Source: Nitrosopumilaceae archaeon (GTDB lineage Archaea; Thermoproteota; Nitrososphaeria; Nitrososphaerales; Nitrosopumilaceae). Taken from it: DNA of 64,000 nucleotides. Positions 46,767 to 63,735 of the stretch are shown here, piece by piece. How positions within the stretch are numbered: position 1 is the stretch's first letter; each line of letters opens with the position of its first letter. The notes under the pieces were generated by a model, which saw only the letters and a list, made by a program, of their open reading frames with translations, was not told the DNA's origin and ran no database searches. The DNA lies in contig CBDCCK010000002.1 of NCBI GenBank assembly GCA_965214835.1, positions 704,001-768,000 of the forward strand, in the 5' to 3' direction. The position numbers were made by a program, and so were the translations under genes.

Positions 46767-46900
46767 CCACACCCTTTTCTTTTTTTTGTACCCATGCTTG
46801 TAAAAAATGTCTTGAAAGCTCTATTTCACCCCAGATGTCACGGTGTCATTCCGCTAGATACCACGACGTGCCTGATTGAAAACGACATGAAGCAACACTA

Positions 46901-48616: not shown

Positions 48617-48691
48617 TACTGTAAGGAAAACCGCCGACGGCAGACTTGAAAGGCACAACCAAGACGACCCAAATTCACGATCTGTGCATGA

Positions 48692-49373: not shown

Positions 49374-49480
49374 GTGAACTACCAACGACTAAAGCCGTTG
49401 GCTTCCTCGTTCAACGAGCCGGCTTGACCATGGCGATTTGTCATGACCAGAGGCCTTCTCTCCGGAGGCGTGACTTTCCC
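49374..49480 (-). mobile_element. IS200/IS605 right end / TnpB omega-RNA remnant
   Basis: Minus strand ends GAAGCCAACGGCTTTAGTCGTTGGTAGTTCAC, the subterminal hairpin plus TTCAC. Confidence 0.7.
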
Positions 49481-49633
49481 GCGTCCCACAGACAAGGATC
49501 CAAGAAAGGAGGCGTACTCGGGCAAGAAGAAGAGCTTTACGCGCAACGTCCAGGTACTGGCCGACAAGAGGGACCTGACGATGTATGCAAGCGAGTCGGC
49601 TCCCGGAAGCGCGCACGACCTCACCATGATAAG
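49481..49633 (+). pseudogene. Internal fragment of family A transposase
   Basis: RPTDKDPRKEAYSGKKKSF...HDLTMI matches A1/A2. Confidence 0.85.
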
Positions 49634-51044
49634 GGACAACTCGCTTTCTACGCTGCCCCTGCGGCAGATAATTCCGGATGATGACGCCAACTGGCTGAAC
49701 CAGACAGACAACGACTTTGATGAATTGGTTCCAGTCATAGATACGGATGGCGGAACTTCGCTGTTTAGGACACTGTTGATGGGATCAACGTCAGGTCGAG
49801 ACGAGTGGGTATGTGACTTTACTAAATCATCACTTCAGAGCAAGATGAAATACTTTGCTAAATTTTACAATGACACAATTAAAAAATATAATGAAGAGAA
49901 ACTAGATGGTGATCTAAAAGACTGGGTGGATAAGAAGATCAAATGGGGTAGGGAAATTATTAAACGATTGAAGCATGGAGATGAAATAGTCTACTCTGAC
50001 ACCAACATCAAAAATCTACTGTATAGACCGTTTGTATTAAAATTTCATTATTTTGATAGGATAATAGTCGATTATCAAAGAAAGTTCCCACAAATTTTTA
50101 AAGATAACAACCCAAACAAAATCATTTGTTTTGTAAACCCGCAAAATAATTCAACATTCCAAACCTTGGCAACTAATCAGATTGCAGAATATCATCTAAC
50201 TGACACGACACAATGTATTCCGCTTCATACATACGATATGGATAATTACAGTTCCAGCAATGTGACAGAATCTGGACTAGAACTATTCCAAAAACATTAC
50301 AAGGACAAAACGATAACTGATGAAGACATATTCTACTACACCTACGCCATCTTCAGCGATCCAAAATACTCTGGCAAATACAAGTTTAACCTGCAGCGCA
50401 AATTTCCGCGAATCCCGCTGGCTGAGAATTTCAGGGAGTGGGTGAGGATAGGTCAGAGGCTGTACATCCTGCATACGGAGTTTGAGGATGCAGAGCCTTA
50501 CGCGTTGCACAGAATAGACAAAAAAACCCGCAAAAATGGCACCAAGCTAAGACTGAAAAAATCCGACGAAAACCAATCTGTGATAATAATAGATGAGCAG
50601 ACCGTCCTTGACGGTGTCCCAAGCCAGGCTTTGGAATACAAGCTCGGTTCAAAGTGTGCACTGGAGTGGATTCTGGAGTTCTACAAGGAATCAAAGAACG
50701 TCATAAAAGAAAAGTCATGCGATGATCCCGCAATACGCGAGAGATTCAACACGTACAGGTTTGCAGACCACAAGGAGCATGTCATAGACCTGCTGCAAAG
50801 GGTTACCACGGTCTCGGTAGAGACAGTGAAGCTGCAGCGAGAACTCGAAAGAATGCCCTGGGGGGAACAGCCAAAACCATACCTTGGAAAATCTGACGTC
50901 AGTGTCGACAAGGCAACGAAAAAACCGCAAATGAGGAAATCCAAACAGCCCAAAAAGCCAAAAGTCGCAAAGAAGAACAGAAGGAAATCCGGGCTCCAGG
51001 ACACGCTTGACGGATCCGGGCAGAAAAGGCTGTTTGGGAACTAG
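49634..51044 (+). pseudogene. Orphan Type ISP-like specificity cassette 3
   Basis: Open frame homologous to 61149-62565 (WLNQTDNDF, YRPF, FPRIPL, ALEWILE) with different variable loops. Confidence 0.85.
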
Positions 51045-51141
51045 GCCACGGCAGAGTCACATACAGCCCAGCTCCCTAAGTTAACGCCAGAAACCCCTAA
51101 CTTAACACCCCGCTGAAAAGCCCCGAAGATTTACCAGAGTA

Positions 51142-51149
51142 CTAAACTG
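51142..51149 (+). repeat. Left 8-bp direct repeat ctaaactg (probable TSD)
   Basis: Identical to 62704-62711 in direct orientation. Confidence 0.85.
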
Positions 51150-53159
51150 TACTCTGGTAAATCTCCGAGAGTTTTCAGAGACCTGTTAAATTAGGGTGCT
51201 GGGGTGTTAAATTAGAGTGTTAGAGACGTCGGCAAGAACAAACGATTGATGGCACGCTACAAGCGTTGGCTTCGGGAATGTTGAAGGTCAGAACAGCCTT
51301 TTCTGGCCGGTTCCGTCAAGCGTGTCTTGGAGCTTGGATTTCTTTGATTTCTTGGGTTTTTTAGGCTGTTGTCTGGTTTTTTTTGTTTGCAATTTTCTCA
51401 TCGTCTTGTCATTGCCGGCATCAGACTTCTTAAGGTGCAGTTCCGGCTGCTTCCCCCAAGGCATGTTTTCAAGATCCCGCCGCAGATTCATCGTCTCGAC
51501 TGAGATACTGGTGACCTTTTGTAGTAGGCCTATGACATGTTCCTTGTAATCTGCAAACCTGTACGTGTTGAACTTTTCCCGGATTTTGGGATCATCGCAG
51601 GATTTGTCGGATATGACGTTCTTTGATTCCTTGTAGAATTCTAAGATCCATTCCAGTGCGCATTTTGAGCTGAATTTGTATTCCAATGCTTGATCAGGTA
51701 CATCCTCAAGTATGGTCTGCTCATCAATCACTATTTTCAATGACTCGCTTTCTGATTTTTTTAAACTCAATTTGGTGCTGTTCTTGTTTGTTTTCCTGTC
51801 TGTGCGTTTTAACGGAAATGGCTCTGCCTCTTCAAAATGGACATGAAGGTCATAGAGTTTTTTGCCTAGCCGTACCCATTTCGAAAAATTTTCTGCGAGA
51901 GGTATTCTTGGGAACTTGCGCTGGAGATTGAACTTGTATTTTTCTTGGTATTTCGGATCATTGAAAATGGCATAAGTATAGTAGAATACGTCCTCGTCTG
52001 TTATCGTTTTGCTCCCGTAGTGTTTTTGAAATAACTCCAAACCAAAGTCAGTAATGTTGCTGTGACGCTTGCCCTCGTCATCGTATGTGTAAAGCGGGAT
52101 GCACTGAGTGCCAACAACACAATCAAGATCCATGATTTTATCAGTTGCCAATGTCTGAAATAACACATTAGTTTTTGGATTGGCAAAACCAATTAGCCTG
52201 TTTGATCTAGAATTTTTGAAGATGTTAGGAAATTTTCTCTGCCTATGTGTTATTATTTTATCAAAATAATTCTTCTTCAATACAAATGGCCTATACATTA
52301 CGTCTTTGATGTTGGATTTTGAATATGCGATTTTATTTCCACGTTTTATATGCTTAAAGAAATCCTCGGTCCACTTGATTTTTTTATCTGCCCAGTCTTT
52401 TAGACTAACCGCTAGGTTTTCTTCATCATATTTAGAAAGTGTTTTGCTGTAAAAATCAACAAAATATTTTATCTTGTTTTCAAGCGATGTTTGGTCAAAA
52501 TCATACACCCATTCGTTCCTGTTTGATGCCAGTCCCATAGACAGTACTCCAAATATGGAATTTTCTTTATCAGACACGATCGGAACCAGTTTTTTAAAAT
52601 CATTGTCAGTCTGGTTCAGCCAGACCGCATCCTCGTCGGGCACTATCTCCCTTAGCTGCAGGGTAGAAAGCGAGTTGTCCGCAAGCCATTTTAGCTTAGC
52701 TTCACTTTTCATATAGTCTGCAATTTCTGTGTATCTAATCTCAGATTTTTCTTCACCCGTTTTGATAAAAAAGGATATGGTTACACCAACCTTGATGGTG
52801 TCTCGAAACACGTTGCCTTTCTGTTTGCGGCGTTCCTCGCCTGATGTACGAGCATTTCCCTTCAGGTTGACAGTATAGATGTAATCAAACTCTTCAAACA
52901 CCGACCTCCTGAACCCATCGTCTGACTTTGCGTCAAGAAAGGAGTTGTTGCTCACAAATATGACCATGCCGTTGTTCTTGATGCGCTCGCTTGCCCACTT
53001 GAGAAAGCGCTTGTACATGTCATACTGCTTATCCTTGTTCCCTACAGTGGAATTTTTGACGTACGTTTCTTCTATTTTCTTATCAAGGTCAGGATATTTG
53101 TCAGCAGGATTTGCGTCGTTAAAGCTTACCTGGACCGCGTTGTACGGCGGGTTTCCCAA
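51150..53159 (-). repeat. Left inverted arm (pairs with 60670-62703)
   Basis: Identical blocks 52852-53159, 52561-52698, 52210-52400; near-identical block 51150-51682. Confidence 0.95.
51288..53159 (-). pseudogene. Silent alternative C-terminal half (NPPY to TRD) of the methyltransferase, cassette 2
   Basis: Open frame from LGNPPY to KRLF; lacks motif I and an N-terminus. Confidence 0.88.
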
Positions 53160-54330
53160 AACTCGCCTTAGTATGTGTGAGCATATCCAGAACACAGTTA
53201 ATCTGTTGCGGTGTTGCCCGCTCTAAGATCTCCTGTATTTGCTGTTTCGGTTCTGATCTAGAAATTACACCCACCTGATCCAAGTATTCCTCGGATCTTG
53301 CAAAGGCATCACTCATTTCATTTAGCAAAACTTCTGGAAGGATCCCCTTGTTTGTGGTGTATCTTGATTCGATGGTGCCTTTATGCCCCATGAAGAAGAC
53401 TCGGAAATCATGCGCAATCTTTCCTTTAGACTCTGCTATTAGCAGCTGTGTGTCAAAATATGCACGTAGCACATACGGCCTCCACCCAAATTTGGGTCGG
53501 AGCGTATTGCGTATTTTGTCGCTTATTCGTTGTGTTGGAAGGAACGCCTTTTGCGATCTTCTCCAAGCATGTACTTCACTATGATCGTTGGGGGATATTA
53601 CGGGTGAGTTCTCGTCCAGATTCTCCCCAGACGCAAGTCTGTCGTTTAGATACGTCACTAGCTGTTCTGTTGCTTGACATGTGGAGAATGTAAAGTACTG
53701 GTGTCCTGCCTTTGACAATTCACGTCTTACGATGATTCGGTTTGGCGTCCGGATGCATTTTACTGTTCCATGTAAAATCGAAATATCTGGAAGATCCCTC
53801 ATCTGTAACCCATCTGTCCCTCTGTGGTTACCAATTACGCCCGGTCTCATACCTGATTTTGCCATAAGTGATATCAGCACGGATTCTCGCAATCCTGCAT
53901 TGCTGTATATGTCTGTCATTTCATGTGCATCAGGCACCCGTTCATTCTGCAGTGTGGGAGAAAACCCAGCAGATGCAATTCTTATTCGTCGCTTTACCAC
54001 CACATCAAAATGCCTGAACCAGGATTTTACGGTGTTTATATGATCCTCTATGTATCCAGGAGAATAGTTGTTGGACTCCATCATGGTTATGTGATCCTCC
54101 AGCAGGTCTGTTGCAGTCCTCAGATCGTTGACTGCAAGATCTGCAAGCTGGGAGGGAGTCATCTTGTGCATCTCACAGAACCTTCCCAGCTTCCGCAGGC
54201 GTCCCTCGGCGGTAAGAGGACTTCCACGCATCAGATTGTCATACCACCGTTGGACATCCTGATTAGATAGTAATTTTGATTTCTTGGTGTGGTTGGCAAC
54301 GTCTTTTGCACACGCTTTACGGGTTTTCAT
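53119..54330 (-). CDS. Tyrosine recombinase/integrase
   Basis: SGMRPG (R), RPYVLRAYF (YxxR), FMGH, SRYTTNK (Y). Confidence 0.9.
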   Translation of the reverse strand: MKTRKACAKDVANHTKKSKLLSNQDVQRWYDNLMRGSPLTAEGRLRKLGRFCEMHKMTPSQLADLAVNDLRTATDLLEDHITMMESNNYSPGYIEDHINTVKSWFRHFDVVVKRRIRIASAGFSPTLQNERVPDAHEMTDIYSNAGLRESVLISLMAKSGMRPGVIGNHRGTDGLQMRDLPDISILHGTVKCIRTPNRIIVRRELSKAGHQYFTFSTCQATEQLVTYLNDRLASGENLDENSPVISPNDHSEVHAWRRSQKAFLPTQRISDKIRNTLRPKFGWRPYVLRAYFDTQLLIAESKGKIAHDFRVFFMGHKGTIESRYTTNKGILPEVLLNEMSDAFARSEEYLDQVGVISRSEPKQQIQEILERATPQQINCVLDMLTHTKASFGKPAVQRGPGKL

Positions 54331-54400
54331 ACGGATTGGTTTTAGATGCCTAATCTTATCCTTATGCGTGACAGGGCATCCACTGTTAAAAAATAAGGCA

Positions 54401-55744
54401 TCAGGAAAGCAGTTTCATCCAGCAGCTGTTTTTTCCATTTGACAGCCAGCTGAATCCGTGCAGACGTAGTATATCATTGATTTCCCGCCAGATGTGCTTG
54501 TCAATCCATGCCCTGGGAGATATTTTGATAGAATCCCCCTCGTTCACAATTGAAACTTTGCTAATTCTCTTTCCCAAATTGCTTGTAAAACTCGGTGTCG
54601 TCATCGACTGTTTTATCAGGTCCAAATACTTGTCGTTTCCAAGTCCAAGCTCGATCCCTGATGCCTGAGCCGGAGTCCTGCCGTCAAGCCCCTGATGCGG
54701 TTTTACAAAATTGTGGTTTATTTTCAGCAACTCTGCAAAGTCCTGTGCTGACTCGTCATTGCCAAGGCCGCGTCTTGCCTTTAGGTTCTCTCTGATCTCG
54801 TTGTGATACCTCTCTATGGGCCTGTTTGCAAACCCGTCCCTGATGGATTTTGTTTTGACATGTGCTGTCATTTCTTTGAATTCTTTTCGCATTGCCTCCT
54901 GATACGAGTTTAAGGCATCTGTAATGACATAGTTAGGATACTTGGGTATCAGCTTCTTACCGCTTGCTATGATTCTTCTTGCATCTGCAATCTCGCGTCT
55001 CTTGGAGACTTCGGTAGCAATCAGAAATCGGGTCTTGGGATCAATGATGCTCCACAACCAGTCATAGAATCCCTTTCCAGTCTTCTCTGTGTTTTTTACG
55101 TTCAGCGTCATCTCATCCAAAGACCATACATCACCAAGCGTTGGACAAAATGACTCCACGTATTCTTTGATCAGTTGGGTGTATTTTTTTATCCAATTTC
55201 TAACGGAGACGTAACTGATCTTAATTCCGTGGACGGAATTGATGTGTCTTGAAATGTTTCTGTACGAGACGCCTGACATGACTAGGTTGATTGATTCGGA
55301 TATTATCTTTGGATCAGACGACATCTTTGAAAACCCGCTTTCTCCAAGGTTGAACCTATAGCCGCATTGCTTGCATTTGTATAGTTGTCTCTTTGTATCA
55401 TCCTTGAGAATTCTGAACCCAGACTTGATTATTGTAGTCGAATAACATTTGGGACAGATTCTTGGCTGTTCCGTCTTTTCAATCCTATTTTGGGTCTTGA
55501 TGTTGTCCTTTAGCATTATGCAACATATGATATGCTTGCAATGCTTGTCGTCTTGTGTTCTGAGCCGGTTATGAAAATCCGGACACTCGCATGTCCATAT
55601 GTCTATGTCATGCAGTTTTTTTACGCTATATTCCTTGTCGGAGTTTTGTGATTTTACTACATAGTGGTTCTTTGTTATCTTTCTGACCGAGTTGACCTTT
55701 GAGAGGATCTGGACTGCTTTTTCATCCCTACTTGTATACTTCAT
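54401..55744 (-). CDS. IS6-like DDE transposase with SWIM and zinc-ribbon domains
   Basis: CECPDF..HCKH, CPKC/CKQC, WSLDEM, VITDAL, NRPIERYH, HNFVKPH..L.GRTPA. Confidence 0.88.
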   Translation of the reverse strand: MKYTSRDEKAVQILSKVNSVRKITKNHYVVKSQNSDKEYSVKKLHDIDIWTCECPDFHNRLRTQDDKHCKHIICCIMLKDNIKTQNRIEKTEQPRICPKCYSTTIIKSGFRILKDDTKRQLYKCKQCGYRFNLGESGFSKMSSDPKIISESINLVMSGVSYRNISRHINSVHGIKISYVSVRNWIKKYTQLIKEYVESFCPTLGDVWSLDEMTLNVKNTEKTGKGFYDWLWSIIDPKTRFLIATEVSKRREIADARRIIASGKKLIPKYPNYVITDALNSYQEAMRKEFKEMTAHVKTKSIRDGFANRPIERYHNEIRENLKARRGLGNDESAQDFAELLKINHNFVKPHQGLDGRTPAQASGIELGLGNDKYLDLIKQSMTTPSFTSNLGKRISKVSIVNEGDSIKISPRAWIDKHIWREINDILRLHGFSWLSNGKNSCWMKLLS

Positions 55745-55829
55745 ATTGTATAGATAACGGTATATCTATAAAACATTATCTGCCTAAAGCCAGATATCCT
55801 TTATATATGTGGATTCACATATTCGAATA

Positions 55830-55988
55830 TTGGCAAGGAAAAAAACAAGTCTCACTTTGGATGAGAAAATCTGGAATAACTTTCAGGCATACGCATTAAA
55901 AAAACACGGAAACACTCGTAACGCCAACACAGAACTGGAGCTTGCCATGTATGAATACATTAAGAATCACCCTGTGGAGAAAAAATAG
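55830..55988 (+). CDS. Small ribbon-helix-helix regulator (52 aa, not in ORF track)
   Basis: MARKKTSLTLDEKIWNNFQAYALKKHG...ELELAMYEYI; divergent from the transposase. Confidence 0.7.
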   Translation: MARKKTSLTLDEKIWNNFQAYALKKHGNTRNANTELELAMYEYIKNHPVEKK

Positions 55989-56074
55989 AATGAATGTTAA
56001 CCGCAAATCGTCAAGGATGCCTGTATTGGGCGGTAAAAATCTAAAAATTCAAAAACAAGCCAAACGCGTGATTC

Positions 56075-59000
56075 ATGGGTAACGGTGAACTAATCATGGG
56101 TAGTGAGGATACGGTAATTGACAATGAGAGTGTCGTACTTTTAGATCAACTAAGAGAGATACTGCCAGATACGAACAGGGCAAGCATTGCGGTGGGCTAT
56201 TTCTTCATCTCTGGATTCAGCGCAATAATGGGTAGCTTAAACAAGATAGAGTCAAGCAGCGACCCAAACCACGTTATACGGCTGTTGATCTCACCGACTA
56301 CAAACCGGGCCACGGCAGAGGCGTTACTTGCAAGCAACGAGTCTTATGAAACAGCAAGAATGAGGGGCAAACAAACCGGTTCTGAGGAAAGAGGAAAAAA
56401 GACCGCAAAAGAAGAGGTCAAAAAAACGCTTGAGTACATGTCGCAAACAAACGAGGATCAAAAGGCTACAGCGAAACTTGCCGAACTGATCAAAAAGAAA
56501 AAAGTGCAGGTGAAGGTATATACAAAGGATCAACTTCATGCAAAGGCGTATATTTTCGAGCTTGACAACAGACAGCTTTCAAAGATGGCAATAGTAGGTT
56601 CCAGCAACCTCTCAATGTCGGGGATAAAGGAGCATACTGAGCTTAATCTGAGAACAAATCACTCAGGCGACTCTGGCAAACTGCTAGAATGGTTTGATCG
56701 ACATTGGAACGATCCCAGCTGCCAGGAATTCACGCGGGAGATAGCTGACATCATAGATGAATCCTGGATTGCCAAACACTCGCCAAATGACGTGTACGAC
56801 AAGGCGGTTCTTCATGAGCATGAAGAACTTTTTGAAGAGCCCGACGGAGTAGATGAAAAAACACGAGAGTTGTTTGACTTTCAAAAGACGGCAGTAAGCA
56901 ACGCCATAAAAAAACTCGACAGGTATGGGGGTGTCATGATTGCCGATGTGGTGGGTACAGGCAAATCCTACATTGGTAGTGCCATTCTAAAGCATCTCAA
57001 GGAGAACAACCGCTCAAAACCACTGATAATATGCCCACCCCACCTCAAGGAGATGTGGCAGGAATACATGAAAGATTTTGACATTTACTGCCAGATAGAA
57101 TCAAGATACAAGATAGGCATGGAGGATAACATACTCTCACGCTACACAAACTGCGACGCGGTGTTGATAGACGAGAGTCACAACTTTCGCAATTCAAGCA
57201 CAAACGCATACAGGGCACTGCTTGCATTCATGGAGGAAAAGACAGAAGAGGCCAAGATAATCATGCTGTCTGCCACCCCGATATCAAACCGCATCACGGA
57301 TCTAAAGAACCAGCTAAGGCTTTTCCCAAGAGAGATGCTCTTGCAGATACCTCCCCTGAACAACACAACACTTGATGAATACTTTAAGGGATTAGACGGC
57401 CCAAAAGACGAGCTCAGAGAGGAGGCCGACACCAAGATACGGGAACTTCTCAAGTATATTCTAATCCGACGTACCCGCAAGCAGATCATGAAAAAGTATG
57501 CCAAAAAAGACGGCAAACGGTACTATCTTGAAAAGGACGGGCAACGAAAGTACTTTCCAAGAAGAGAGTTACAGAATCCAAAGGAGTACAATGTTGACAA
57601 GGTGTACAACAACTCCTTTGACATGATCCAAAGCGCGATTGAGGATCTTACCCTTGCGAGGTTTGCCCCGGGAAACTACATCAAGAAAGAATATCTGAAC
57701 GACTCTAACCCGGACCACAAAAAATATGTCGATTTGAACAGTACGACAAAGCCACTGGTTGGCATAGTTCGGACATCGCTACTCAAGAGGATGGAAAGTA
57801 GCATCATGGCGTTTGCATCCAGCGTAAAGCACTATCAGGAAGGGTACAAGGAGTTCAGAAAGCAGCTTGACAAGGGCAAGGTTCCCATCGGAAAGGACTT
57901 TCATGATGAGATATACAAGAAGATCGCATACGAGGGGGAAGACTATGACGACGAGGAGTACGAGCAGAAAATGGCAAAGATCTCATCTCAGTACGACATA
58001 GAGGCGTTTGACGTGGAACGTTGGAAGAGGGACATAGCAGAGGACATTAACCGTTTTTCAAGCATCAAGGGGAATCTGGTGTCAAAGTCCGAGTATACCA
58101 AATATGATGACAAGCTCCACACGCTGGTAAAACTGGTCAACGGAATGGACAGGGAAAAGATTCTGATCTTTTCTGAATCTGCCGTAACCGCAAAATACGT
58201 CTACGAATACATGAAAAAGGAACTAAATCCGCCTCGTCGTATTGCGCAGATTGACTCTAAACAGGGAAACAGGGAGAAAAATGTCTTGATCAGGAAGTTT
58301 GATCCGAAGAACAACAACGCTACTGCTGATGTTCCAAAAAGCGAGGAGATTGACGTGTTGATAAGCACGGACGTACTGTCTGAGGGAGTGAACTTGCAAG
58401 CTGGCAAGACGGTAATCAACTATGACTTTCACTGGAATCCCGTCAGGCTCATACAGAGAGTAGGAAGGATAGACAGGATAGGCACGCAACACGAAACTGT
58501 CGACGTGATCAATTTCCTTCCTACGGCAAAGATTGACGCGACTCTCTCGCTCAAAGAAAGGGTTGCAAACAAGATTGAGACCATCCGCAGGATAATAGGA
58601 CATGATCAGCAGATACTAGAGTCAACAGAAGTATTGGACGAAAAGGGCGTGCTTGACATTTATGCTGGTAACGAGGACGTACTGGATTCTGATGTTGCAA
58701 GCATCATTGATATGGGCGAATCAAAGTCAGAACAAGACGCAGACAATATAAAAAGAGATGAGACAAGAAGACAACATATCGAGCAGATGCCCTTTGGCAT
58801 AAGAAGCGTTTCAGGCACGGGTAAGCTTCTGATAGCGTGCGAGGCACGGGAGATTGTAATGGATCAGCGTGGCCGCCACATGTCTGAACGTCCGTTTAGA
58901 AGACACTACGAAATAACGAAGGACAGCATTACTCAGATCTGGCAGTCATCCTTCCTGAACGAGTTGGGGAAAAACCAAGGAAACCTATCCGGCACGGAGG

Positions 59001-59374
59001 ATTCCACATATAACGAGCTTGTGGCTGAAGCGTGGAAAAAGTTCGATAAGGACATGAAAAATTCCAGTGCAAAAAAGACCATGCTAAAGCACCAGCAATA
59101 CTTTGATAAAAAATTAAGACAGATGTCCGAAAGTCAGGACTTGGGCCGTCGCGCAATGTCCATGCTGCCGTTCGTAGGACAGAGAATGCTTACAAATCTC
59201 CAGCCGTACAAGAGGCTAACCGAGCTTCGCAAGGAGATTGACAGGAATCCCGACACTGATGACAAGATGATAATCGAGGGGTTGGAAACGATCAGGGATA
59301 AATACGGACAGACGGAATATGAAAAGACGATAAGCAAGCCTCGTATACTGTATAGCATGATGGTGGCCAAATGA
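56075..59374 (+). CDS. PLD nuclease-SNF2/SF2 helicase (restriction subunit)
   Basis: LHAKAY..GSSN; ADVVGTGKS; IDESHN; SATP; LSEGVNLQ; WNPVRLIQRVGRIDR. Confidence 0.92.
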   Translation: MGNGELIMGSEDTVIDNESVVLLDQLREILPDTNRASIAVGYFFISGFSAIMGSLNKIESSSDPNHVIRLLISPTTNRATAEALLASNESYETARMRGKQTGSEERGKKTAKEEVKKTLEYMSQTNEDQKATAKLAELIKKKKVQVKVYTKDQLHAKAYIFELDNRQLSKMAIVGSSNLSMSGIKEHTELNLRTNHSGDSGKLLEWFDRHWNDPSCQEFTREIADIIDESWIAKHSPNDVYDKAVLHEHEELFEEPDGVDEKTRELFDFQKTAVSNAIKKLDRYGGVMIADVVGTGKSYIGSAILKHLKENNRSKPLIICPPHLKEMWQEYMKDFDIYCQIESRYKIGMEDNILSRYTNCDAVLIDESHNFRNSSTNAYRALLAFMEEKTEEAKIIMLSATPISNRITDLKNQLRLFPREMLLQIPPLNNTTLDEYFKGLDGPKDELREEADTKIRELLKYILIRRTRKQIMKKYAKKDGKRYYLEKDGQRKYFPRRELQNPKEYNVDKVYNNSFDMIQSAIEDLTLARFAPGNYIKKEYLNDSNPDHKKYVDLNSTTKPLVGIVRTSLLKRMESSIMAFASSVKHYQEGYKEFRKQLDKGKVPIGKDFHDEIYKKIAYEGEDYDDEEYEQKMAKISSQYDIEAFDVERWKRDIAEDINRFSSIKGNLVSKSEYTKYDDKLHTLVKLVNGMDREKILIFSESAVTAKYVYEYMKKELNPPRRIAQIDSKQGNREKNVLIRKFDPKNNNATADVPKSEEIDVLISTDVLSEGVNLQAGKTVINYDFHWNPVRLIQRVGRIDRIGTQHETVDVINFLPTAKIDATLSLKERVANKIETIRRIIGHDQQILESTEVLDEKGVLDIYAGNEDVLDSDVASIIDMGESKSEQDADNIKRDETRRQHIEQMPFGIRSVSGTGKLLIACEAREIVMDQRGRHMSERPFRRHYEITKDSITQIWQSSFLNELGKNQGNLSGTEDSTYNELVAEAWKKFDKDMKNSSAKKTMLKHQQYFDKKLRQMSESQDLGRRAMSMLPFVGQRMLTNLQPYKRLTELRKEIDRNPDTDDKMIIEGLETIRDKYGQTEYEKTISKPRILYSMMVAK

Positions 59375-62300
59375 GTTTTGAGGATCGCCTGGAATCCCTT
59401 CAAAGGACGCTGAAATTAAGCGGATATGAGAATATACGCCATTTCGTTGACATAAGCGCGCTAGTAAGGGACGAATCAGTAAGCGACTGTGAGATAATAG
59501 CGCGCAAGGATTTCTACAACATCTTATATCTGGAGGCAAAGTCAAACTGGCGCGGCATTGCCACCGACGTGGCCAAAAAGCAGTCAAAGCCATGCCTTGT
59601 CATCACTGGCTACGGGGAATCACACCTGATCCTATCCACCATCAAGGATTACTTTACAAATCCAAGACCGCGCCATGTCATCATCGACACAAGATCCAAG
59701 ACACATTCTTTTGACGGATTTGCAAAGCTGATCAAGGTAAGGCCGGAGGACGATTTTGTATCTATAGATGAGCAAGTACACCATGCGTTTGATGAATTTG
59801 CGGCGTACGAGGAGGCGCTTGACGAATTCGGCGAGAACCTCAAAAACGCAATAAAAAACACACGGGAAATCATAGTAAAGGCATCAAAAAACAACAAGAG
59901 ATACGACGCAGAGTCTGAACAGTTTCTGGAGATGTGTCACAAGGTGATAAGCAACAAGCTCAAATCAGACGACATTACAGAGATGATTCTTCAGCATGTC
60001 CTGACATACAAGATCTTCTCCCTGATATACGACGAGCACGAACTCCACAGCACCAATGCAATAGCACGGTCACTTGAGGGCATAATAGATACGCTTGGAG
60101 TCGATATGGAGCAGATTAGTACCGGCTACCAGACGACAAAACTGGTAGCCGAATCGCTTACAGATTTTGCCGAAAAGCAGGACTTTCTCAAACGCGTGTA
60201 TGAGACGTTTTATGCAGAGTATGACCCAAAAAACAAGGACAGTTGGGGAATAGCATACACCCCATCAGAGGTTGTGGATTTCATGGTAAGGTCGACCGAC
60301 CAGCTGCTTGAAAAACACTTTGGAAAATCAATGTCCGATGATTGTGTTACCCTACTTGATCCGGCCACCGGTACGGGAACATTCATTACACAGATCCTGA
60401 GGCACCTGAAGCACAACTCTGTCAAAACCAAATACGAAAATGACATATTTGCAAACGACATATCGTTACTGGCATACTACATTGCTGCGCTGAACATAGA
60501 GAATACATACCAAGAGATAACAGGGCAAGTCAAAGAGTTTGAGAACATATGCTGGATGGATACCCTTGCTACTGGCACAAAGGACTTTGGGAAGGTAAGC
60601 ACGTATTTTGATGAGCAGGACAATGTAAAGAGGATCTCAAAGCAGCAAGTAAAGGACATATGTGTGGTCTTGGGAAACCCGCCGTACAACGCGGTCCAGG
60701 TAAGCTTTAACGACGCAAATCCTGCTGACAAATATCCTGACCTTGATAAGAAAATAGAAGAAACGTACGTCAAAAATTCCACTGTAGGGAACAAGGATAA
60801 GCAGTATGACATGTACAAGCGCTTTCTCAAGTGGGCAAGCGAGCGCATCAAGAACAACGGCATGGTCATATTTGTGAGCAACAACTCCTTTCTTGACGCA
60901 AAGTCAGACGATGGGTTCAGGAGGTCGGTGTTTGAAGAGTTTGATTACATCTATACTGTCAACCTGAAGGGAAATGCAAGACTGTCTGGTGATGCATGGA
61001 GACGCGAGGGGGATAAAATATTTGGCCAGAGTGCGCGTGTTGGCATATCCATATCTTTTTTTATAAAAACGGGAGAAAATCATTCAGAGATACGATACGT
61101 GGAAATAGACGATTATTTGAAGAGGGAAGATAAGCTAAAATGGCTTGCGGACAACTCGCTTTCTACCCTGCAGCTAAGGGAGATAGTGCCCGACGAGGAT
61201 GCGGTCTGGCTGAACCAGACTGACAATGATTTTAAAAAACTGGTTCCGATCGTGTCTGATAAAGAAAAATCTGTCTTTGAATTGCTTTCAATGGGTTTAA
61301 CATCTAATAGAGACGAATGGGTGTATGATCTAGGCCGGAAATCACTTGAAAACAAAATGAGGTATTTCGTTGATTTTTACAACAAATCAGTCGCACAATA
61401 TCAGAATGAACATCCTAAGGATACAGAATTCAAAGACTGGGCAGATAAAAAAATCAAGTGGACCGAGGATTTCTTTAAGCATATAAAACGTGGAAATAAA
61501 ATCGCATATTCAAAATCCAACATCAAAGACGTAATGTATAGGCCATTTGTATTGAAGAAGAATTATTTTGATAAAATAATAACACATAGGCAGAGAAAAT
61601 TTCCTAACATCTTCAAAAATTCAAGCCGTAATAGACTGATTAATTTTACAAATCCTACACCAAAAAGCCGATTTCATGCGCTTGTGTCAGACAAGATCGT
61701 TGATCTTCATTATGTTATTGACACTCAATGCATTCCGCTTTACACATATGATGATGGGGGCAAGCGTCACAGCAACGTCACTGACTTTGGTTTGGAGTTA
61801 TTTCAAAAACACTATAGGAACAAAGCGATAGCAGACGAGGACATATTCTACTACACCTATGCCATTTTCAATGATCCGAAATACCAAGAAAAATACAAGT
61901 ACGATCTGCAGCGCAAATTCCCAAGAATTCCGCTGGCTGAGAATTTTGGTGATTGGGTGAAAATAGGCAGGAAACTGTATGATCTCCATGTCAACTTTGA
62001 ATGTGTCAAAAAGTATCCATTGAAGCGAACAGACAAAAAGACTGCAAAAAATCAAACCCGACTCCTGCTGAAAAAACCGAAAGAGGAAGACAACTCTCAG
62101 GATTTTACCATAATGATTGATGATAATACGATGCTTGAAGGAGTGCCAAAAGAAACGTTGCAATACAAATTCAGCTCAAAATGCGCACTGGAGTGGATCT
62201 TAGAATTCTACAAGGAATCAAAGAACGTCATATCCGACAAATCCTGCGATGATCCCAAAATCCGGGAAAAGTTCAACACGTACAGGTTTGCAGATTACAA

Positions 62301-62565
62301 GGAACATGTCATAGGCCTACTACAAAAGGTCACCAGTATCTCAGTCGAGACGATGAAGCTGCGGCGGGATCTTGAAAACATGCCTTGGGGGAAGCAGCCG
62401 GAACTGCACCTTAAGAAGTCTGATGCCGGCAATGACAAGACGATGAGAAAATTGCAAACAAAAAAAACCAGACAACAGCCTAAAAAACCTAAAAAACCCA
62501 AGAAATCAAAGAAATCCAAGCTCCAAGACACGCTTGACGGAACCGGCCAGAAAAGGCTGTTCTGA
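59371..62565 (+). CDS. N6-adenine methyltransferase with Type ISP-like specificity domain
   Basis: YTPSEVVDFMV, LDPATGTGTF, GNPPY, YRPF, FPRIPL; ATGA overlap with the helicase. Confidence 0.93.
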   Translation: MSFEDRLESLQRTLKLSGYENIRHFVDISALVRDESVSDCEIIARKDFYNILYLEAKSNWRGIATDVAKKQSKPCLVITGYGESHLILSTIKDYFTNPRPRHVIIDTRSKTHSFDGFAKLIKVRPEDDFVSIDEQVHHAFDEFAAYEEALDEFGENLKNAIKNTREIIVKASKNNKRYDAESEQFLEMCHKVISNKLKSDDITEMILQHVLTYKIFSLIYDEHELHSTNAIARSLEGIIDTLGVDMEQISTGYQTTKLVAESLTDFAEKQDFLKRVYETFYAEYDPKNKDSWGIAYTPSEVVDFMVRSTDQLLEKHFGKSMSDDCVTLLDPATGTGTFITQILRHLKHNSVKTKYENDIFANDISLLAYYIAALNIENTYQEITGQVKEFENICWMDTLATGTKDFGKVSTYFDEQDNVKRISKQQVKDICVVLGNPPYNAVQVSFNDANPADKYPDLDKKIEETYVKNSTVGNKDKQYDMYKRFLKWASERIKNNGMVIFVSNNSFLDAKSDDGFRRSVFEEFDYIYTVNLKGNARLSGDAWRREGDKIFGQSARVGISISFFIKTGENHSEIRYVEIDDYLKREDKLKWLADNSLSTLQLREIVPDEDAVWLNQTDNDFKKLVPIVSDKEKSVFELLSMGLTSNRDEWVYDLGRKSLENKMRYFVDFYNKSVAQYQNEHPKDTEFKDWADKKIKWTEDFFKHIKRGNKIAYSKSNIKDVMYRPFVLKKNYFDKIITHRQRKFPNIFKNSSRNRLINFTNPTPKSRFHALVSDKIVDLHYVIDTQCIPLYTYDDGGKRHSNVTDFGLELFQKHYRNKAIADEDIFYYTYAIFNDPKYQEKYKYDLQRKFPRIPLAENFGDWVKIGRKLYDLHVNFECVKKYPLKRTDKKTAKNQTRLLLKKPKEEDNSQDFTIMIDDNTMLEGVPKETLQYKFSSKCALEWILEFYKESKNVISDKSCDDPKIREKFNTYRFADYKEHVIGLLQKVTSISVETMKLRRDLENMPWGKQPELHLKKSDAGNDKTMRKLQTKKTRQQPKKPKKPKKSKKSKLQDTLDGTGQKRLF

Positions 62566-62703
62566 CCTTCAACATTCCCGAAGCCAACGCTTGTAGCGTG
62601 CCATCAATCGTTTGTTCTTGCCGACGTCTCTAACACTCTAATTTAACACCCCAGCACCCTAATTTAACAGGTCTCTGAAAACTCTCGGAGATTTACCAGA
62701 GTA
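60670..62703 (+). repeat. Right inverted arm
   Basis: Identical blocks 60670-60977, 61131-61268, 61432-61622; near-identical block 62162-62703. Confidence 0.95.
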
Positions 62704-62711
62704 CTAAACTG
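62704..62711 (+). repeat. Right 8-bp direct repeat ctaaactg
   Basis: Matches 51142-51149; followed by another IS6-like end (tacactggtaagttaacgggag). Confidence 0.85.
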
Positions 62712-62918
62712 TACACTGGTAAGTTAACGGGAGCTGATTTCTCCTGGAAGGCGTCGGGAGCCGGAACCGGTGGCTATCCCTCATGCTAACGGCCGGGTGA
62801 TGTCGGAGGAGGTGACCTAGTACAAAAGAAGGCTTCTTGGTTTTGTCTGGATTTGGCTCAGCGTCTCATTTGGCATCTTGGGTTGGCCGGTTGATGCTAG
62901 TCACGCACAGAATATACG

Positions 62919-63200
62919 CTAGTCTAGAATGACTGGTCTCCAGTCAGACAGATTACGGGAGTTATAATTGCACTCATCCTGATCGTTGTACATCCATTCG
63001 TTATTGTCTAATATCACAACGCCGCCAAAGAGGCTCTTGGAGTTCTTTATGTATCGCGTAAGCGCTTCGGCCTTGTATTTGGCCTCTTTTGCAGTAAATC
63101 CTTCCTTGGTATCGAACAGCCCTACCTTGCCATTCTCCATGCGGATTATAAAATCAAGCCGGAGCAAATCCGGATGAGTATTTCCTGACGAAGGTATCAA
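62919..63200 (-). pseudogene. Type III restriction Res endonuclease C-terminal fragment
   Basis: DFII....KVGLFDTK.G......KAEAL..Y. Confidence 0.6.
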
Positions 63201-63239
63201 AAACTCACTGTATTTCTTCCGCGCTAGCTGGATTCCGAG

Positions 63240-63735
63240 ACACGGTTCTGGCTGGCCCAGACGGTCTCAGAACACAAGGGAAACGACGACGTGTCCCCGA
63301 TGTTCAGGGATGCCAAGAGGAAGGCAAGCAAAATCCCAAAGATGCTGATATCGGACAGGGCTGCAAACTTTCACCATGCATGGAGGGAGCAGTACCGATC
63401 CAAGAACTTCCTCCACAAGGACACCGAACATCACAGGAACATCCATCTCTCCGGCGACATGAACAACAACCAGATGGAGTCATTCAACGGCAACACACAG
63501 GGCCTGCGAGAAGGTGATCCGTGGGATTAAGAGGGACGATTCTGCCATACTCAGGGGGATGCAGATCCACCACAACTACATCAGGCCCCATCAGGGTCTT
63601 GACGGCGACATGCCGGCAGACAGGGCCGGAATCAGAATAATGGGAGAAAACAAGTGGAAGACCATAATCCAGAACGCCCATACCAGCTCCCGACGCTTTC
63701 CGGGAGAAATCAGCTCCCGTTAGCTTACCAGTCCC
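63240..63735 (+). pseudogene. IS6-family transposase 3' fragment with right end
   Basis: LISD, NNNQMESFNG, HNYIRPH, NKWKTIIQNA; end cttaccagtccc. Confidence 0.85.

Follow-up and report, generated by a model that had tools for sequence, protein, structure and literature searches.

A probable integrase-borne restriction–modification island with a putatively invertible specificity cassette in a Nitrosopumilaceae archaeon

Most of the closest described systems are bacterial. In Bacteroides ovatus, programmed inversions were reported in a Cj0031-like Type II restriction–modification (RM) enzyme with an adjacent PLD and SNF-helicase CDS (CP083813.1, CP044495.1; Milman, Yelin & Kishony 2023, PMC9881135). 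Inverted partial methyltransferase copies yield alternative alleles at these loci, and the inversion variants are described there as coexisting, confirmed by long reads; the survey, as it states, scanned bacteria only. The same source describes recombinase-adjacent inversions that swap internal parts of the specificity-setting N6-adenine methyltransferase in BREX type 1 (PglX) and Class 1 DISARM (DrmMI) (PMC9881135). In Type I hsdS shufflons (S. pneumoniae ivr/SpnD39III, PsrA), a tyrosine recombinase is described beside inverted partial specificity genes, in which constant blocks alternate with variable TRDs (PMC4948785, PMC7096588). Integrated elements of Thaumarchaeota, in turn, are described with tyrosine-recombinase (XerC/D-like) integrases, RM cargo, short att repeats, integration at gene 3' ends and site re-use forming arrays (Krupovic et al. 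2019, PMC6563490).

Here we describe a locus of an archaeon of the ammonia-oxidising type, within a window of 64,000 nucleotides (the whole stretch analysed), that we consider reasonably likely to be an integrase-borne RM island with an invertible specificity cassette (Table 1). It shares with the B. ovatus loci a PLD-SNF2 protein beside a single-chain RM methyltransferase, a likeness of gene content; the PLD-SNF2 CDS lies immediately upstream, as in CP083813.1 (in CP044495.1 it lies downstream). Unlike those loci as described, ours is archaeal, its recombinase gene lies inside the putative invertible segment with the 3' end in the repeat, and the unit looks discrete and mobile. The swapping of internal methyltransferase parts recalls BREX and DISARM, but the unit contains no BrxC/PglZ or DrmA/B genes. 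It resembles the hsdS shufflons in its recombinase, inverted partial genes and alternating blocks; in Type I systems, however, a small gene of its own encodes the specificity subunit, whereas in our unit the variation falls in the C-terminal 60% of the catalytic methyltransferase itself, one loop of the MTase domain (V1) included. Compared with the Thaumarchaeota elements, for which the available text of PMC6563490 mentions no invertible specificity cassette, the putative integration site, a palindrome of 30 bp, adjoins the tail of an earlier copy of the same gene family. The preliminary description of this DNA knew of no archaeal equivalent, and we likewise found no archaeal invertible RM specificity cassette in print; as far as the bacterial survey describes it, however, the principle has been published for this gene pair and confirmed by long reads (PMC9881135), and what is new here is the archaeal occurrence.

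Table 1. Coordinates of the unit, its arms and neighbouring features within the window.
Feature	Position	Strand	Details
Remnant of multicopy DDE_Tnp_4 IS	49481..49640	+	89% identical to active copies; cuts cassette A 5' end
Cassette A, older 5'-truncated TRD cassette	49634..51044	+	Type_ISP_C domain; ~68% identical to arms B and C; inside ORF 49443-51044
Cassette A tail module	51068..51142	+	Repeated end sequence of ~70 nt, always stopping at ...TTACCAGAGTAC; 8 genome copies
Left 30-bp palindromic site	51131..51160	+	TTACCAGAGTAC-TAAACT-GTACTCTGGTAA; spacer 51143-51148
Arm B, silent inverted cassette	51149..53162	-	624 open codons (53162-51288) + 139 bp 3' tail
Tyrosine recombinase/integrase, 403 aa	53119..54330	-	Last 14 codons inside first identical block, different frame
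Putative invertible core	53163..60666	.	7,504 bp; recombinase, IS6-like gene, RHH-like ORF, PLD-SNF2 gene, methyltransferase codons 1-432
IS6-like DDE transposase, N-terminal zinc motifs	54401..55744	-	Single copy in genome; absent from L028
RHH-like small ORF, 59 aa	55809..55988	+	Resemblance by eye only
PLD (HKD) nuclease-SNF2 helicase fusion, 1099 aa	56075..59374	+	Stop overlaps methyltransferase start
RM methyltransferase, 1064 aa, expressed	59371..62565	+	In order: nuclease-like N-domain, ISP coupler, gamma N6-MTase (NPPY 436-439), Type_ISP_C TRD
Arm C, expressed cassette	60667..62704	+	Codons 433-1064 + 139 bp 3' tail
Identical block 1	60670..60977	+	308 bp, aa 434-536; N436, N474, K475, K477 = equivalents of DrdV contacts
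Variable segment V1	60978..61130	+	57% identical; spans equivalents of DrdV N548, R554, D564, K567
Identical block 2	61131..61268	+	138 bp
Variable segment V2	61269..61431	+	68% identical; N646 (equivalent of DrdV N673) unchanged between arms
Identical block 3	61432..61622	+	191 bp
Variable segment V3	61623..62161	+	72% identical overall, ~90% in one stretch; spans equivalents of DrdV D803, K807
Near-identical terminal block	62162..62704	+	532/543; extends 139 bp beyond stop codon
Right 30-bp palindromic site	62693..62722	+	One mismatch; spacer TAAACT at 62705-62710; direct orientation to left copy
MITE-like element, 50-nt terminal inverted repeats	62715..63732	.	Abuts right site; outside unit

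Two inverted arms of about 2 kb each, B and C, lie on either side of the core. Their global alignment resolves three exact-match blocks separated by divergent segments, and the same repeat pairs were recovered by repeat search (e.g. I3, 311 nt). Block 1 of arm C corresponds to 53159-52852 in arm B, the terminal block contains 2 SNPs and a 9-bp indel, and the stretch from the stop codon to the site is the same in both arms at 139/139 positions. In both arms the reading frame runs without interruption from NPPY to the stop (632 codons in arm C, 624 in arm B). This anatomy agrees exactly with that proposed in the preliminary description, whose quoted peptides were also found.

The methyltransferase is homologous to DrdV (E=5e-190) and also to LlaGI and LlaBIII (E values across the set of 5e-190, 3e-130 and 7e-112). 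These enzymes have in common a helical coupler, a gamma-class MTase and a TRD, and the Pfam domains ISP_coupler and Type_ISP_C are found here. The N6_Mtase match of the full protein begins at residue 269, and its N-domain weakly resembles the nuclease domains of BpuSI and DrdV (Z 6.7 and 5.8). An earlier Type ISP label does not hold in the strict sense: of the solved relatives, DrdV, a Type IIL enzyme, matches best, and unlike Type ISP enzymes the protein has no fused Mrr-helicase, the helicase-nuclease being a separate PLD-SNF2 protein encoded upstream. A second cassette is not reported for the solved DrdV/ISP-type relatives in the source material available. The base-contact residues described for DrdV in a preprint (10.1101/2021.01.06.425610) were transferred by alignment. 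The R554 and D564 equivalents (and that of K567) fall in V1, the D803 and K807 equivalents fall in V3, and all differ between the arms (arm C/arm B: W/R543, Q/D553 and R/K556 in V1; H/D780 and D/G784 in V3), while the equivalents of N448, Q485, K486, K488, R721 and Y764 fall in identical blocks. Since residues with a base-reading role in DrdV fall within V1 and V3, the alleles should methylate and restrict different motifs.

Together, the sequence comparisons strongly support a shufflon reading, in which the arms would act like alternative specificity cassettes of one gene, and the arrangement probably allows the cell to switch from one target specificity to another. The locus encodes a two-gene restriction system, comprising a PLD-nuclease/SNF2-translocase and then a translationally coupled 1064-residue methyltransferase-TRD protein. 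Arm B, a silent, promoterless, inverted copy of the last 632 codons of the methyltransferase, immediately follows the recombinase gene. A reciprocal exchange between the arms in any perfectly identical block would invert the 7.5-kb core together with the sequence inside the crossovers. The single methyltransferase N-half would then continue in frame into arm B or into a hybrid of B and C, and the three variable segments could yield up to eight alleles. The operon promoter and the recombinase gene would travel inside the core, with both reading frames intact in either orientation. For homologous recombination, 308 bp of perfect inverted identity make a good substrate. We infer that inversion occurs in living populations and changes specificity, catalysed by either the recombinase or general homologous recombination; no copies of the tail half-site were found inside the arms, so any recombinase-driven inversion of the core must use other sequences.

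A second element of this kind was identified in a Nitrosopumilus MAG (L028), with the order arm(-), recombinase(-), PLD-SNF2(+), methyltransferase(+) and amino acid identities to our unit of 78% for the recombinase, 57% for PLD-SNF2 and 64% for the methyltransferase. The two L028 arms match each other in inverted orientation over 1804 bp (86.8% identity). The first block (307 bp, 100% identical between its own arms) starts at the same codon (433) and nucleotide junction, and the silent arm retains an intact 617-codon frame. The architecture, junction codon included, is conserved in this second species. Within each element the two copies of block 1 are 100% identical, and between the elements only 235/312 positions (75%) match; at the protein level, constant blocks are 93-100% identical within an element versus 52-79% between elements. 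Such homogenisation within and divergence between elements shows continuing exchange between arms. Variable segments occupy the same places in both elements, and V1 of silent arm B is closest to V1 of the expressed arm of L028 (76% amino acid identity, versus 50-53% for other pairs), which is what exchange between silent and expressed positions would produce.

These comparisons bear on the view that the second arm is a conserved but static duplicate, in which rare gene conversion is the only exchange, the core keeps one orientation, and arm B is a reservoir or relic with no functional switching. Three observations are consistent with it: the arms carry no recognisable recombinase site; the Logan contigs of four runs contain no orientation variant and no hybrid allele, these contigs breaking 33 nt into the identical blocks so that they cannot span the orientation; and a second arm is found at 2 of 12 distinct PLD-SNF2 and methyltransferase loci (ours and L028), several of which have short flanks. 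Yet the silent arms (624 and 617 codons) are still open in two lineages that are 25% apart in block 1 nucleotides, the perfect blocks lie at matching positions in both elements, V1 alleles stand in swapped positions between the two, and the bacterial counterpart, as described, does invert (PMC9881135). We regard a static duplicate as unlikely, if still worth weighing.

L028 also bears on whether the two arms came from a single fusion event between sister elements or from an assembly that wrongly merged two strains. Mosaic alleles of the methyltransferase family do exist elsewhere in the genome, such as a remnant (F1) that matches part of arm C's V3 at 93.5% identity, which counts in favour of this reading. 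L028 is, however, an independent assembly from another species that shares the junction to the nucleotide, and a one-off fusion is refuted by this common architecture. Against an artefact, contigs of three runs, which may be the source of the assembly and hence not independent, carry the variable segments of both arms and show no differences in them. In run X3 the V2 contig has a depth of 11.8 versus 12.0 for the core, and the collapsed tail contig 26.4; depths in run X6 are less regular (146 and 207 versus 89). Overall, a fusion or artefact is extremely improbable.

Arm B might instead give rise to a protein of its own, made from a separate start or through read-through of the recombinase transcript: a stand-alone TRD with half a methyltransferase that modulates or competes with the full enzyme. 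In arm B a GTG start precedes the repeat by 11 codons, and a genome of the same genus (G061) contains two ATG-started frames of 579-581 residues from the NPPY boundary with no N-half nearby. However, the product would be without the SAM-binding motifs upstream of NPPY, the start region is set by the overlapping recombinase frame, and such a role would not need blocks of perfect identity; we consider it improbable.

Against the inversion reading stands the rarity of a second arm, which was found in none of 25 viral-contig relatives. A third locus (L032/L024) keeps the recombinase, PLD-SNF2 and methyltransferase without one. Ten recombinase loci were examined in the genome, and none of the nine paralogues lies between inverted gene copies. 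Recombinase orthologues in two other genomes (G001, G134; 66-68% identity) have no methyltransferase nearby. These relatives of the recombinase look like ordinary integrases, which also counts against that reading.

A sister strain lacks almost all of the 11.6-kb unit (51149-62704), which looks like a discrete insertion at the tail of the older, decayed cassette A. In run X1, depth is 72-108 in the flanks versus 0-8 in the unit, and one contig (depth 86) covers 49592-51160 and continues with 22 letters equal to 62723-62744, a candidate empty-site join that is below our 31-letter bridging rule and whose letters belong to a repeat end present elsewhere in the genome. In the candidate empty site the palindrome is complete and has one spacer, as one would expect for the core site of a tyrosine recombinase, and the 30-bp site has only two copies in the genome, one at each end of the unit in direct orientation. 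The whole unit is probably mobile, gained or lost in one piece by site-specific recombination at these sites, and we infer that the integrase moves it. The related L028 element sits in a different genomic neighbourhood; no att-like repeats were found around it.

The preliminary description had the unit moving as one transposon, of which the discrete, probably mobile insertion stands, on the 30-bp sites and the X1 depth, and nothing backs an IS6-driven element. A composite or TIR-bounded transposon, with the 2-kb arms as terminal inverted repeats and the SWIM/IS6-like DDE transposase as mover, could be read from the transposase gene inside the unit, and from unit termini that are inverted copies of the repeated end module flanked by a 6-bp direct repeat, TAAACT. 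Transposition of IS6 elements produces cointegrates and duplications of 8 bp, a pattern absent here; no terminal repeats or IS6-type ends lie beside the transposase, the gene is single-copy and missing from L028 (whose recombinase-to-helicase gap of 359 bp has no IS6-like gene), its family score is below the IS6 cut-off, and the candidate empty site is a whole palindrome. We judge such a transposon very improbable; the IS6-like gene is best read as a later passenger insertion.

The gene content is otherwise as first described, with some assignments qualified. The recombinase has no Pfam or NCBIfam match, and its identity as a tyrosine recombinase is confirmed by predicted fold only: its structure model (mean pLDDT 76) has 40 Foldseek PDB matches at E<=0.001, and the matches listed (ranks 1-50, with gaps) are tyrosine recombinases headed by XerA, IntI and Cre, except for one entry, Phi3T SroF (rank 46), not classifiable from its title. 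The IS6 match of the transposase scores 99 bits against an NCBIfam cut-off of 125, and its SWIM motif was recognised by eye, as was the RHH resemblance of the small ORF, which has no family match, nor a Pfam match even at E<=10; in L028, sequence weakly similar to the 3' end of this ORF lies upstream of the PLD-SNF2 gene. PADLOC matches of the PLD-SNF2 protein to DrmD and BrxH cover the helicase part only.

Beside the unit lies a third, older cassette (cassette A), overlooked in the preliminary description, which is oriented directly to arm C and tail-to-tail with arm B.

Repeat search and global alignment bore out the anatomy of arms, blocks and divergent segments set out in the preliminary description. 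A core of 7,504 bp is flanked by two inverted arms: arm C, expressed as the 3' part of the methyltransferase gene, and arm B, a silent cassette. Exact identity runs of 308, 138 and 191 bp are common to both, and over the terminal 543 bp 532 positions match, this last block extending 139 bp past the stop codon. The divergent segments between the blocks, here V1, V2 and V3, are 57%, 68% and 72% identical, and arm B remains open for 624 codons, counted from the repeat start. The inventory of two arms was nonetheless incomplete, since a third cassette (cassette A) had been overlooked. Its 5' end is truncated by a remnant of a multicopy IS, and the genome contains two more decayed fragments of the methyltransferase family at other places, both interrupted by an internal stop. 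The truncating sequence is a 160-nt remnant of a DDE_Tnp_4 IS, an element with more than 20 genome copies, many of them ~99% identical. One decayed fragment, the remnant F1 (C2:855228-855552), matches part of arm C's V3 at 93.5% identity, while its tail is only ~79% identical and ends in a tandem duplication 72 nt apart; the disparity suggests that variable segments circulate between loci.

Features of the locus, and residues of the methyltransferase equivalent to the DNA-reading residues of DrdV
Feature	Position in window	Strand or segment	Description
DDE_Tnp_4 IS	46896-48620		448-aa transposase
Cassette A	49634-51044	+	~68% identical to both arms; tail-to-tail with arm B
30-bp site, two copies	51131-51160 and 62693-62722
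Whole unit	51149-62704
Arm B	51149-53162	-	silent cassette
Core	53163-60666
Expressed methyltransferase gene	59371-62565		1064 codons; arm C is its 3' part
PLD (HKD) nuclease fused to SNF2 helicase			1099 aa; upstream gene, its stop overlapping the methyltransferase start
Arm C	60667-62704	+	expressed cassette
Segments V1; V2; V3	60978-61130; 61269-61431; 61623-62161 (arm C); V1 of arm B 52699-52851
MITE-like element, ~1 kb	62715-63732		50-nt terminal inverted repeats, 92% complementary
DrdV N448, Q485, K486, K488 (MTase contacts)	N436, N474, K475, K477	block 1	arms identical
DrdV N548 (MTase contact)	R537	V1	same in C and B
DrdV R554 (MTase contact)	543	V1	C/B = W/R
DrdV D564 (MTase contact)	553	V1	C/B = Q/D
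DrdV K567 (flipped-base space)	556	V1	C/B = R/K
DrdV N673 (TRD contact)	N646	V2	same in C and B
DrdV R721, Y764 (TRD contacts)	E699, R742	block 3	arms identical
DrdV D803 (TRD contact)	780	V3	C/B = H/D
DrdV K807 (TRD contact)	784	V3	C/B = D/G

The architecture that the preliminary description had proposed to look for in other genomes was found, second arm included, in a Nitrosopumilus sp. MAG (L028), one of 8 loci returned by a scan of genome contigs with an alignment of five homologues. Both elements combine a full-length methyltransferase gene with an inverted, promoterless partial copy bearing identical repeats. The inverted arm of L028 spans methyltransferase residues 433-1017, the recombinase (78% identical to that of the window) lies directly beside it, and the PLD-SNF2 gene (57%) and the methyltransferase gene (64%) follow in that order. 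Its arms are 86.8% identical over 1804 bp; the repeat has the same starting codon as that of the window, down to the nucleotide, the first block comprises 307 bp of perfect identity, the variable segments coincide with the places of V1, V2 and V3, and the silent arm holds an intact frame of 617 codons.

Block 1 is 100% identical inside each element, yet only 235 of 312 positions agree between the window and L028; for the encoded protein, identity in the constant blocks is 93-100% inside an element and 52-79% from one element to the other. The preliminary description had offered a one-off fusion of two sister elements as its alternative. These identities rule it out, since blocks that are homogenised within elements and diverged between them cannot be explained by a recent event of that kind. 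The pattern requires instead a single origin of the arrangement, its retention over a long period of divergence, and continuing sequence exchange between the arms of each element. For V1 in the silent arm of the window, the nearest counterpart is V1 in the expressed arm of L028 (76%, against 50-53% for the other pairs), a pattern that exchange between silent and expressed positions would produce. Taken on this comparative evidence, the reading of the locus as a shufflon is well supported.

The methyltransferase (1064 aa) comprises ISP_coupler (PF22240), N6_Mtase/Eco57I (PF02384) and Type_ISP_C (PF18135) domains, and matches PADLOC models for 'Type IIG REase-MTase'. Among relatives of known structure, the best is the Type IIL enzyme DrdV (7lo5_A, E=5.3e-190, residues 145-998 aligned), followed by LlaGI (E=2.7e-130) and LlaBIII. 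No sequence match in the PDB was obtained for residues 1-144. Residues 1-170 were modelled at pLDDT 85.8; Foldseek matched this N-domain to nothing at E<=0.001, and the top VIA-align rows, BpuSI 24-173 (Z 6.7) and DrdV 27-142 (Z 5.8), both fall below the tool's caution level of 8. The N-domain features a putative D47-x7-E55-x-K57 motif that is not conserved, K57 being present in 5 of 11 aligned homologues. The coupler, gamma N6-MTase and Type_ISP_C TRD resemble their counterparts in LlaGI and LlaBIII, which are Type ISP enzymes, and the connector, MTase and TRD are likewise homologous to those of the Type IIL enzymes MmeI, DrdV and BpuSI. Type ISP enzymes, however, are single chains of Mrr nuclease, SF2 helicase, coupler, MTase and TRD, whereas here the nuclease-helicase is a separate PLD-SNF2 protein and there is no Mrr domain. 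The original designation as Type ISP is thus better replaced by that of a DrdV/Type ISP-like methyltransferase-TRD protein with a separate PLD-SNF2 partner. Related methyltransferase genes at two loci (L036 in G345, L020 in G052) are split by insertions of 1.3-1.7 kb; that of L036 lies at residues 420-426, just ahead of the NPPY boundary where the window's arms begin.

The arms differ at positions that are likely to matter for DNA recognition. Residues of DrdV that contact bases in its MTase and TRD, together with K567, which occupies the gap that the flipped base leaves behind, were taken from the excerpted text of the DrdV study (10.1101/2021.01.06.425610). Window positions were assigned through sequence alignment to DrdV, and the residues of each arm were read from the arm alignment (see table). 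The contact-equivalent residues that differ suggest that at least V1 and V3 alter base-reading positions of the closest solved homologue, and specificity likely differs between the arm alleles.

The PLD-SNF2 and methyltransferase pair is a conserved module in 12 distinct loci (the window, L019, L022, L023, L028, L029, L030=L025, L031, L032=L024, L033=L037, L034 and L035), two of which feature a second arm; the flanks of L022 and L023 are short. A family-level search returned a methyltransferase match in 24 of 151 genomes, and from the resulting table an opposite-strand partial copy within 10 kb was read in three of these 24 (G000, G028 and G083). A class-level search, in which three candidates were scored per genome, gave matches in 30 of 401 genomes, all from the window's family. 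In G028 no nucleotide-level repeat was found. In G083 (L016, C1:2078000-2096000), a canonical Type ISP gene (Mrr-helicase-coupler-MTase-TRD) is disrupted by an IS, and an inverted TRD cassette of 470 codons lies just upstream of its start; gene and cassette share a perfect block of 486 bp and one of 963 bp at 92%, and no recombinase separates them. TRD cassettes thus turn up again within this archaeal family, there in another class of enzyme. All 25 distant relatives on viral contigs lack a second arm. A metagenome scan found two relatives only, both 53% identical and on short contigs in which no second arm was seen. Ten recombinase loci of this genome were examined, the window's included, and none of the nine paralogues is flanked by inverted gene copies. 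Two stand-alone frames of 579-581 aa (L017 and L018, at ~709 kb and ~733 kb of G061:C1) begin with ATG at the NPPY boundary and correspond to query residues 429-949, and neither has an N-terminal half in its vicinity. One of them sits among GmrSD, Schlafen-AlbA_2 and DUF4145 genes, and the two could be orphan cassettes or have a separate function.

The recombinase has no Pfam or NCBIfam match, and phmmer against the PDB returned none at E<=10. A model was built from 37 homologues, with a mean pLDDT of 76, and Foldseek found 40 matches to it in the PDB at E<=0.001. Of the matches listed, at ranks 1-50 with gaps, all are tyrosine recombinases, headed by XerA, IntI and Cre, except Phi3T SroF (rank 46), whose class is not evident from its title. 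By alignment, the catalytic tyrosine would be Y324. Homologues are annotated as 'site-specific integrase' of Nitrososphaerota, and the relatives P0002-P0004 share 82-84% identity. From the predicted structure, the locus encodes a site-specific recombinase with a tyrosine recombinase fold, the gene of which adjoins arm B in the window and the equivalent arm in L028. Its last ~14 codons lie inside block 1, in a different frame from the methyltransferase, in the window (53119-53162) and in L028 (5113-5070 region) alike, and the encoded C-termini read ...GKPAVQRGPGKL and ...GKPAVQRDTGILQ, respectively. The recombinase would thus retain the same C-terminus whichever arm adjoins it. Since the recombinase gene and the N-terminal half of the methyltransferase both read outward from the core into an arm, each remains intact in either orientation.

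Seven sequencing runs were found for the locus, all as Logan contigs, of which X1, X3, X4 and X6 were mapped. In X3, X4 and X6, which may be the source of the assembly itself, the core is one contig of 7,570 nt (53130-60699) that ends 33 nt into both identical blocks. Differing bases in arm B, at 51486 (X4 and X6) and 51651 (X6), are arm-C bases on a contig of ~2x depth; they were considered as inter-arm exchange, which was rejected, and are read as assembly collapse of two near-identical tails.

Each cassette closes with a similar tail of ~70-100 nt that stops at ...TTACCAGAGTAC, and where the tail of cassette A meets the inverted tail of arm B they form a perfect palindrome, TTACCAGAGTAC-TAAACT-GTACTCTGGTAA. 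The two 30-bp sites match at 29 of 30 positions, have the same spacer orientation and are the sole two copies in the genome. The whole unit therefore lies between direct repeats shaped like the core site of a tyrosine recombinase, with 12-bp inverted arms and a 6-bp spacer. The exact pattern of this site had no matches in the collections of genome contigs and viral contigs searched. A scan for tail half-sites across 49-63.2 kb, allowing up to 2 mismatches, found none inside arms B or C; beyond the four half-sites of the two tail sites, it returned two matches with 2 mismatches (49525 and 50377), both assigned to cassette A, where ~1 would be expected by chance. An integrase gene stands at one end of the element, and the integrase-PLD-SNF2-MTase module recurs in L028, whose genomic neighbourhood differs from that of the window and around which no att-like repeats were found, and in L032/L024, where it lacks a second arm.

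In run X1, which represents a sister strain under another organism label and comes from another study, cassette A and the right flank are covered at a depth of 72-108 and the unit at 0-8. A contig of depth 86 carries 49592-51160 with 2 differences, followed by 22 letters equal to 62723-62744. This join looks like an empty site, although its 22 letters are fewer than the 31 that the bridging rule asks for and are part of a repeat end found at 8 genome places. Short core contigs in X1 (52852-57769, depth 4-6, 0-1 differences) could reflect a minority subpopulation with the island or carry-over between samples.

A tail module of ~70 nt (51068-51142), with two CTAAnTTAAC repeats and always ending TTACCAG(A/T)GTA(C/G), occurs at 8 genome places, including C2:65240, 854480, 854552, 2242429 and 2465381, one of them directly after a tRNA-Thr gene. 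It is detached from any methyltransferase gene beside the tRNA-Thr gene, at two other genome places and as a solo copy in another species of the genus (L039 in G080), and may be an element end or an arm of an att site. The end sequence of the MITE-like element likewise occurs at 8 genome places, one of which lies upstream of remnant F2 of the methyltransferase, at a distance of 45 nt. This end (..ACTGGTAAG..) is similar to the tail module's inverted end (..CTCTGGTAAA..).

Together, the direct-repeat site, the X1 depths, the differing context of L028 and the tail modules indicate an island gained or lost as one piece, for which the simplest agent would be the tyrosine recombinase acting at the palindromic site. 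Cassette A would then be what remains of an earlier occupant, the site having come from its tail. The unit might, less probably, be read as a DDE transposon with terminal inverted repeats and a 6-bp duplication, and the preliminary description had called it a transposon. The internal IS6-like gene is, however, an unlikely agent of such movement. It matches DDE_Tnp_IS240, with the IS6 equivalog below cut-off, and is a single copy with no genome paralogue and no convincing flanking terminal repeats; the repeat flanking the unit is 6 bp within a palindrome, as opposed to the 8-bp target duplication of IS6-type elements. L028 lacks the gene, its gap between recombinase and helicase being 359 bp against 1744 bp in the window, and this suggests that the transposase is a passenger. 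The unit is thus better described as an integrase-borne island with a passenger IS. The neighbouring RHH-like ORF has no Pfam or NCBIfam match. Integrated elements of Thaumarchaeota have short att sites, insert at gene 3' ends, re-use sites and carry RM cargo, as described in the portion of PMC6563490 available, and the island fits that description.

A single tyrosine recombinase, its gene lying in the invertible segment and running at its 3' end into the repeat, might both move the island and invert the core. It would integrate and excise the 11.6-kb RM island at the palindromic site on the methyltransferase-gene tail, and would also flip the core, shuffling the three specificity segments. 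We regard this double role as a speculative and rather improbable proposal. If true, ammonia-oxidising archaea would possess a horizontally transferable, phase-variable restriction or epigenetic system, the first such archaeal switch documented for a single-chain RM enzyme.

Switching of RM specificity by DNA inversion is a known form of bacterial bet-hedging against phages, and also drives epigenetic phase variation. Milman et al. (2023) report programmed inversions, confirmed by long reads, at 11 Type II RM enzyme loci. In the text available, a Cj0031-like RM CDS is paired in two of them with an adjacent phospholipase D/SNF helicase CDS, immediately upstream in CP083813.1 (B. ovatus, 5322008-5329826) and downstream in CP044495.1 (PMC9881135). 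The gene pair is that of the window, and the order in CP083813.1 is the same. According to the same excerpt, bacteria only were scanned and archaea were named as future work; systematic scans have left Archaea out or covered very few archaeal sets. Chanin et al. analyzed 42 archaeal long-read sets with 12 putative invertons, and the only archaeal example described in the accessible part of their report concerns an adenylosuccinate synthase gene; a computational prediction of archaeal Type I invertons (Atack et al. 2020) is also cited there (PMC10028968). Our literature search found no archaeal single-chain RM enzyme with invertible TRD cassettes, in keeping with the preliminary statement that no described archaeal equivalent was known, and a bacterial equivalent with the same gene pair is published (PMC9881135, in the part available). 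The mechanism is thus already known, and the archaeal, integrase-borne instance appears new. With a conserved example in Nitrosopumilaceae, the mechanism would reach ammonia oxidisers of worldwide abundance and the viruses that infect them, and the locus would also be a case of such a switch being carried by a small integrative island. Moreover, comparison of the two species would indicate which segments of DrdV/Type ISP-like enzymes can be swapped to change specificity, which would be of use for enzyme engineering.

The gene pair was also detected under a bacterial label. Two contigs of a MAG labelled Dehalococcoidia bacterium (L034 and L035) carry PLD-SNF2 and methyltransferase genes at 57% and 39-49% identity to the archaeal genes, with a short stretch that matches the IS6-like transposase at its C-terminus directly upstream of the helicase gene; these could reflect horizontal transfer or a binning error.
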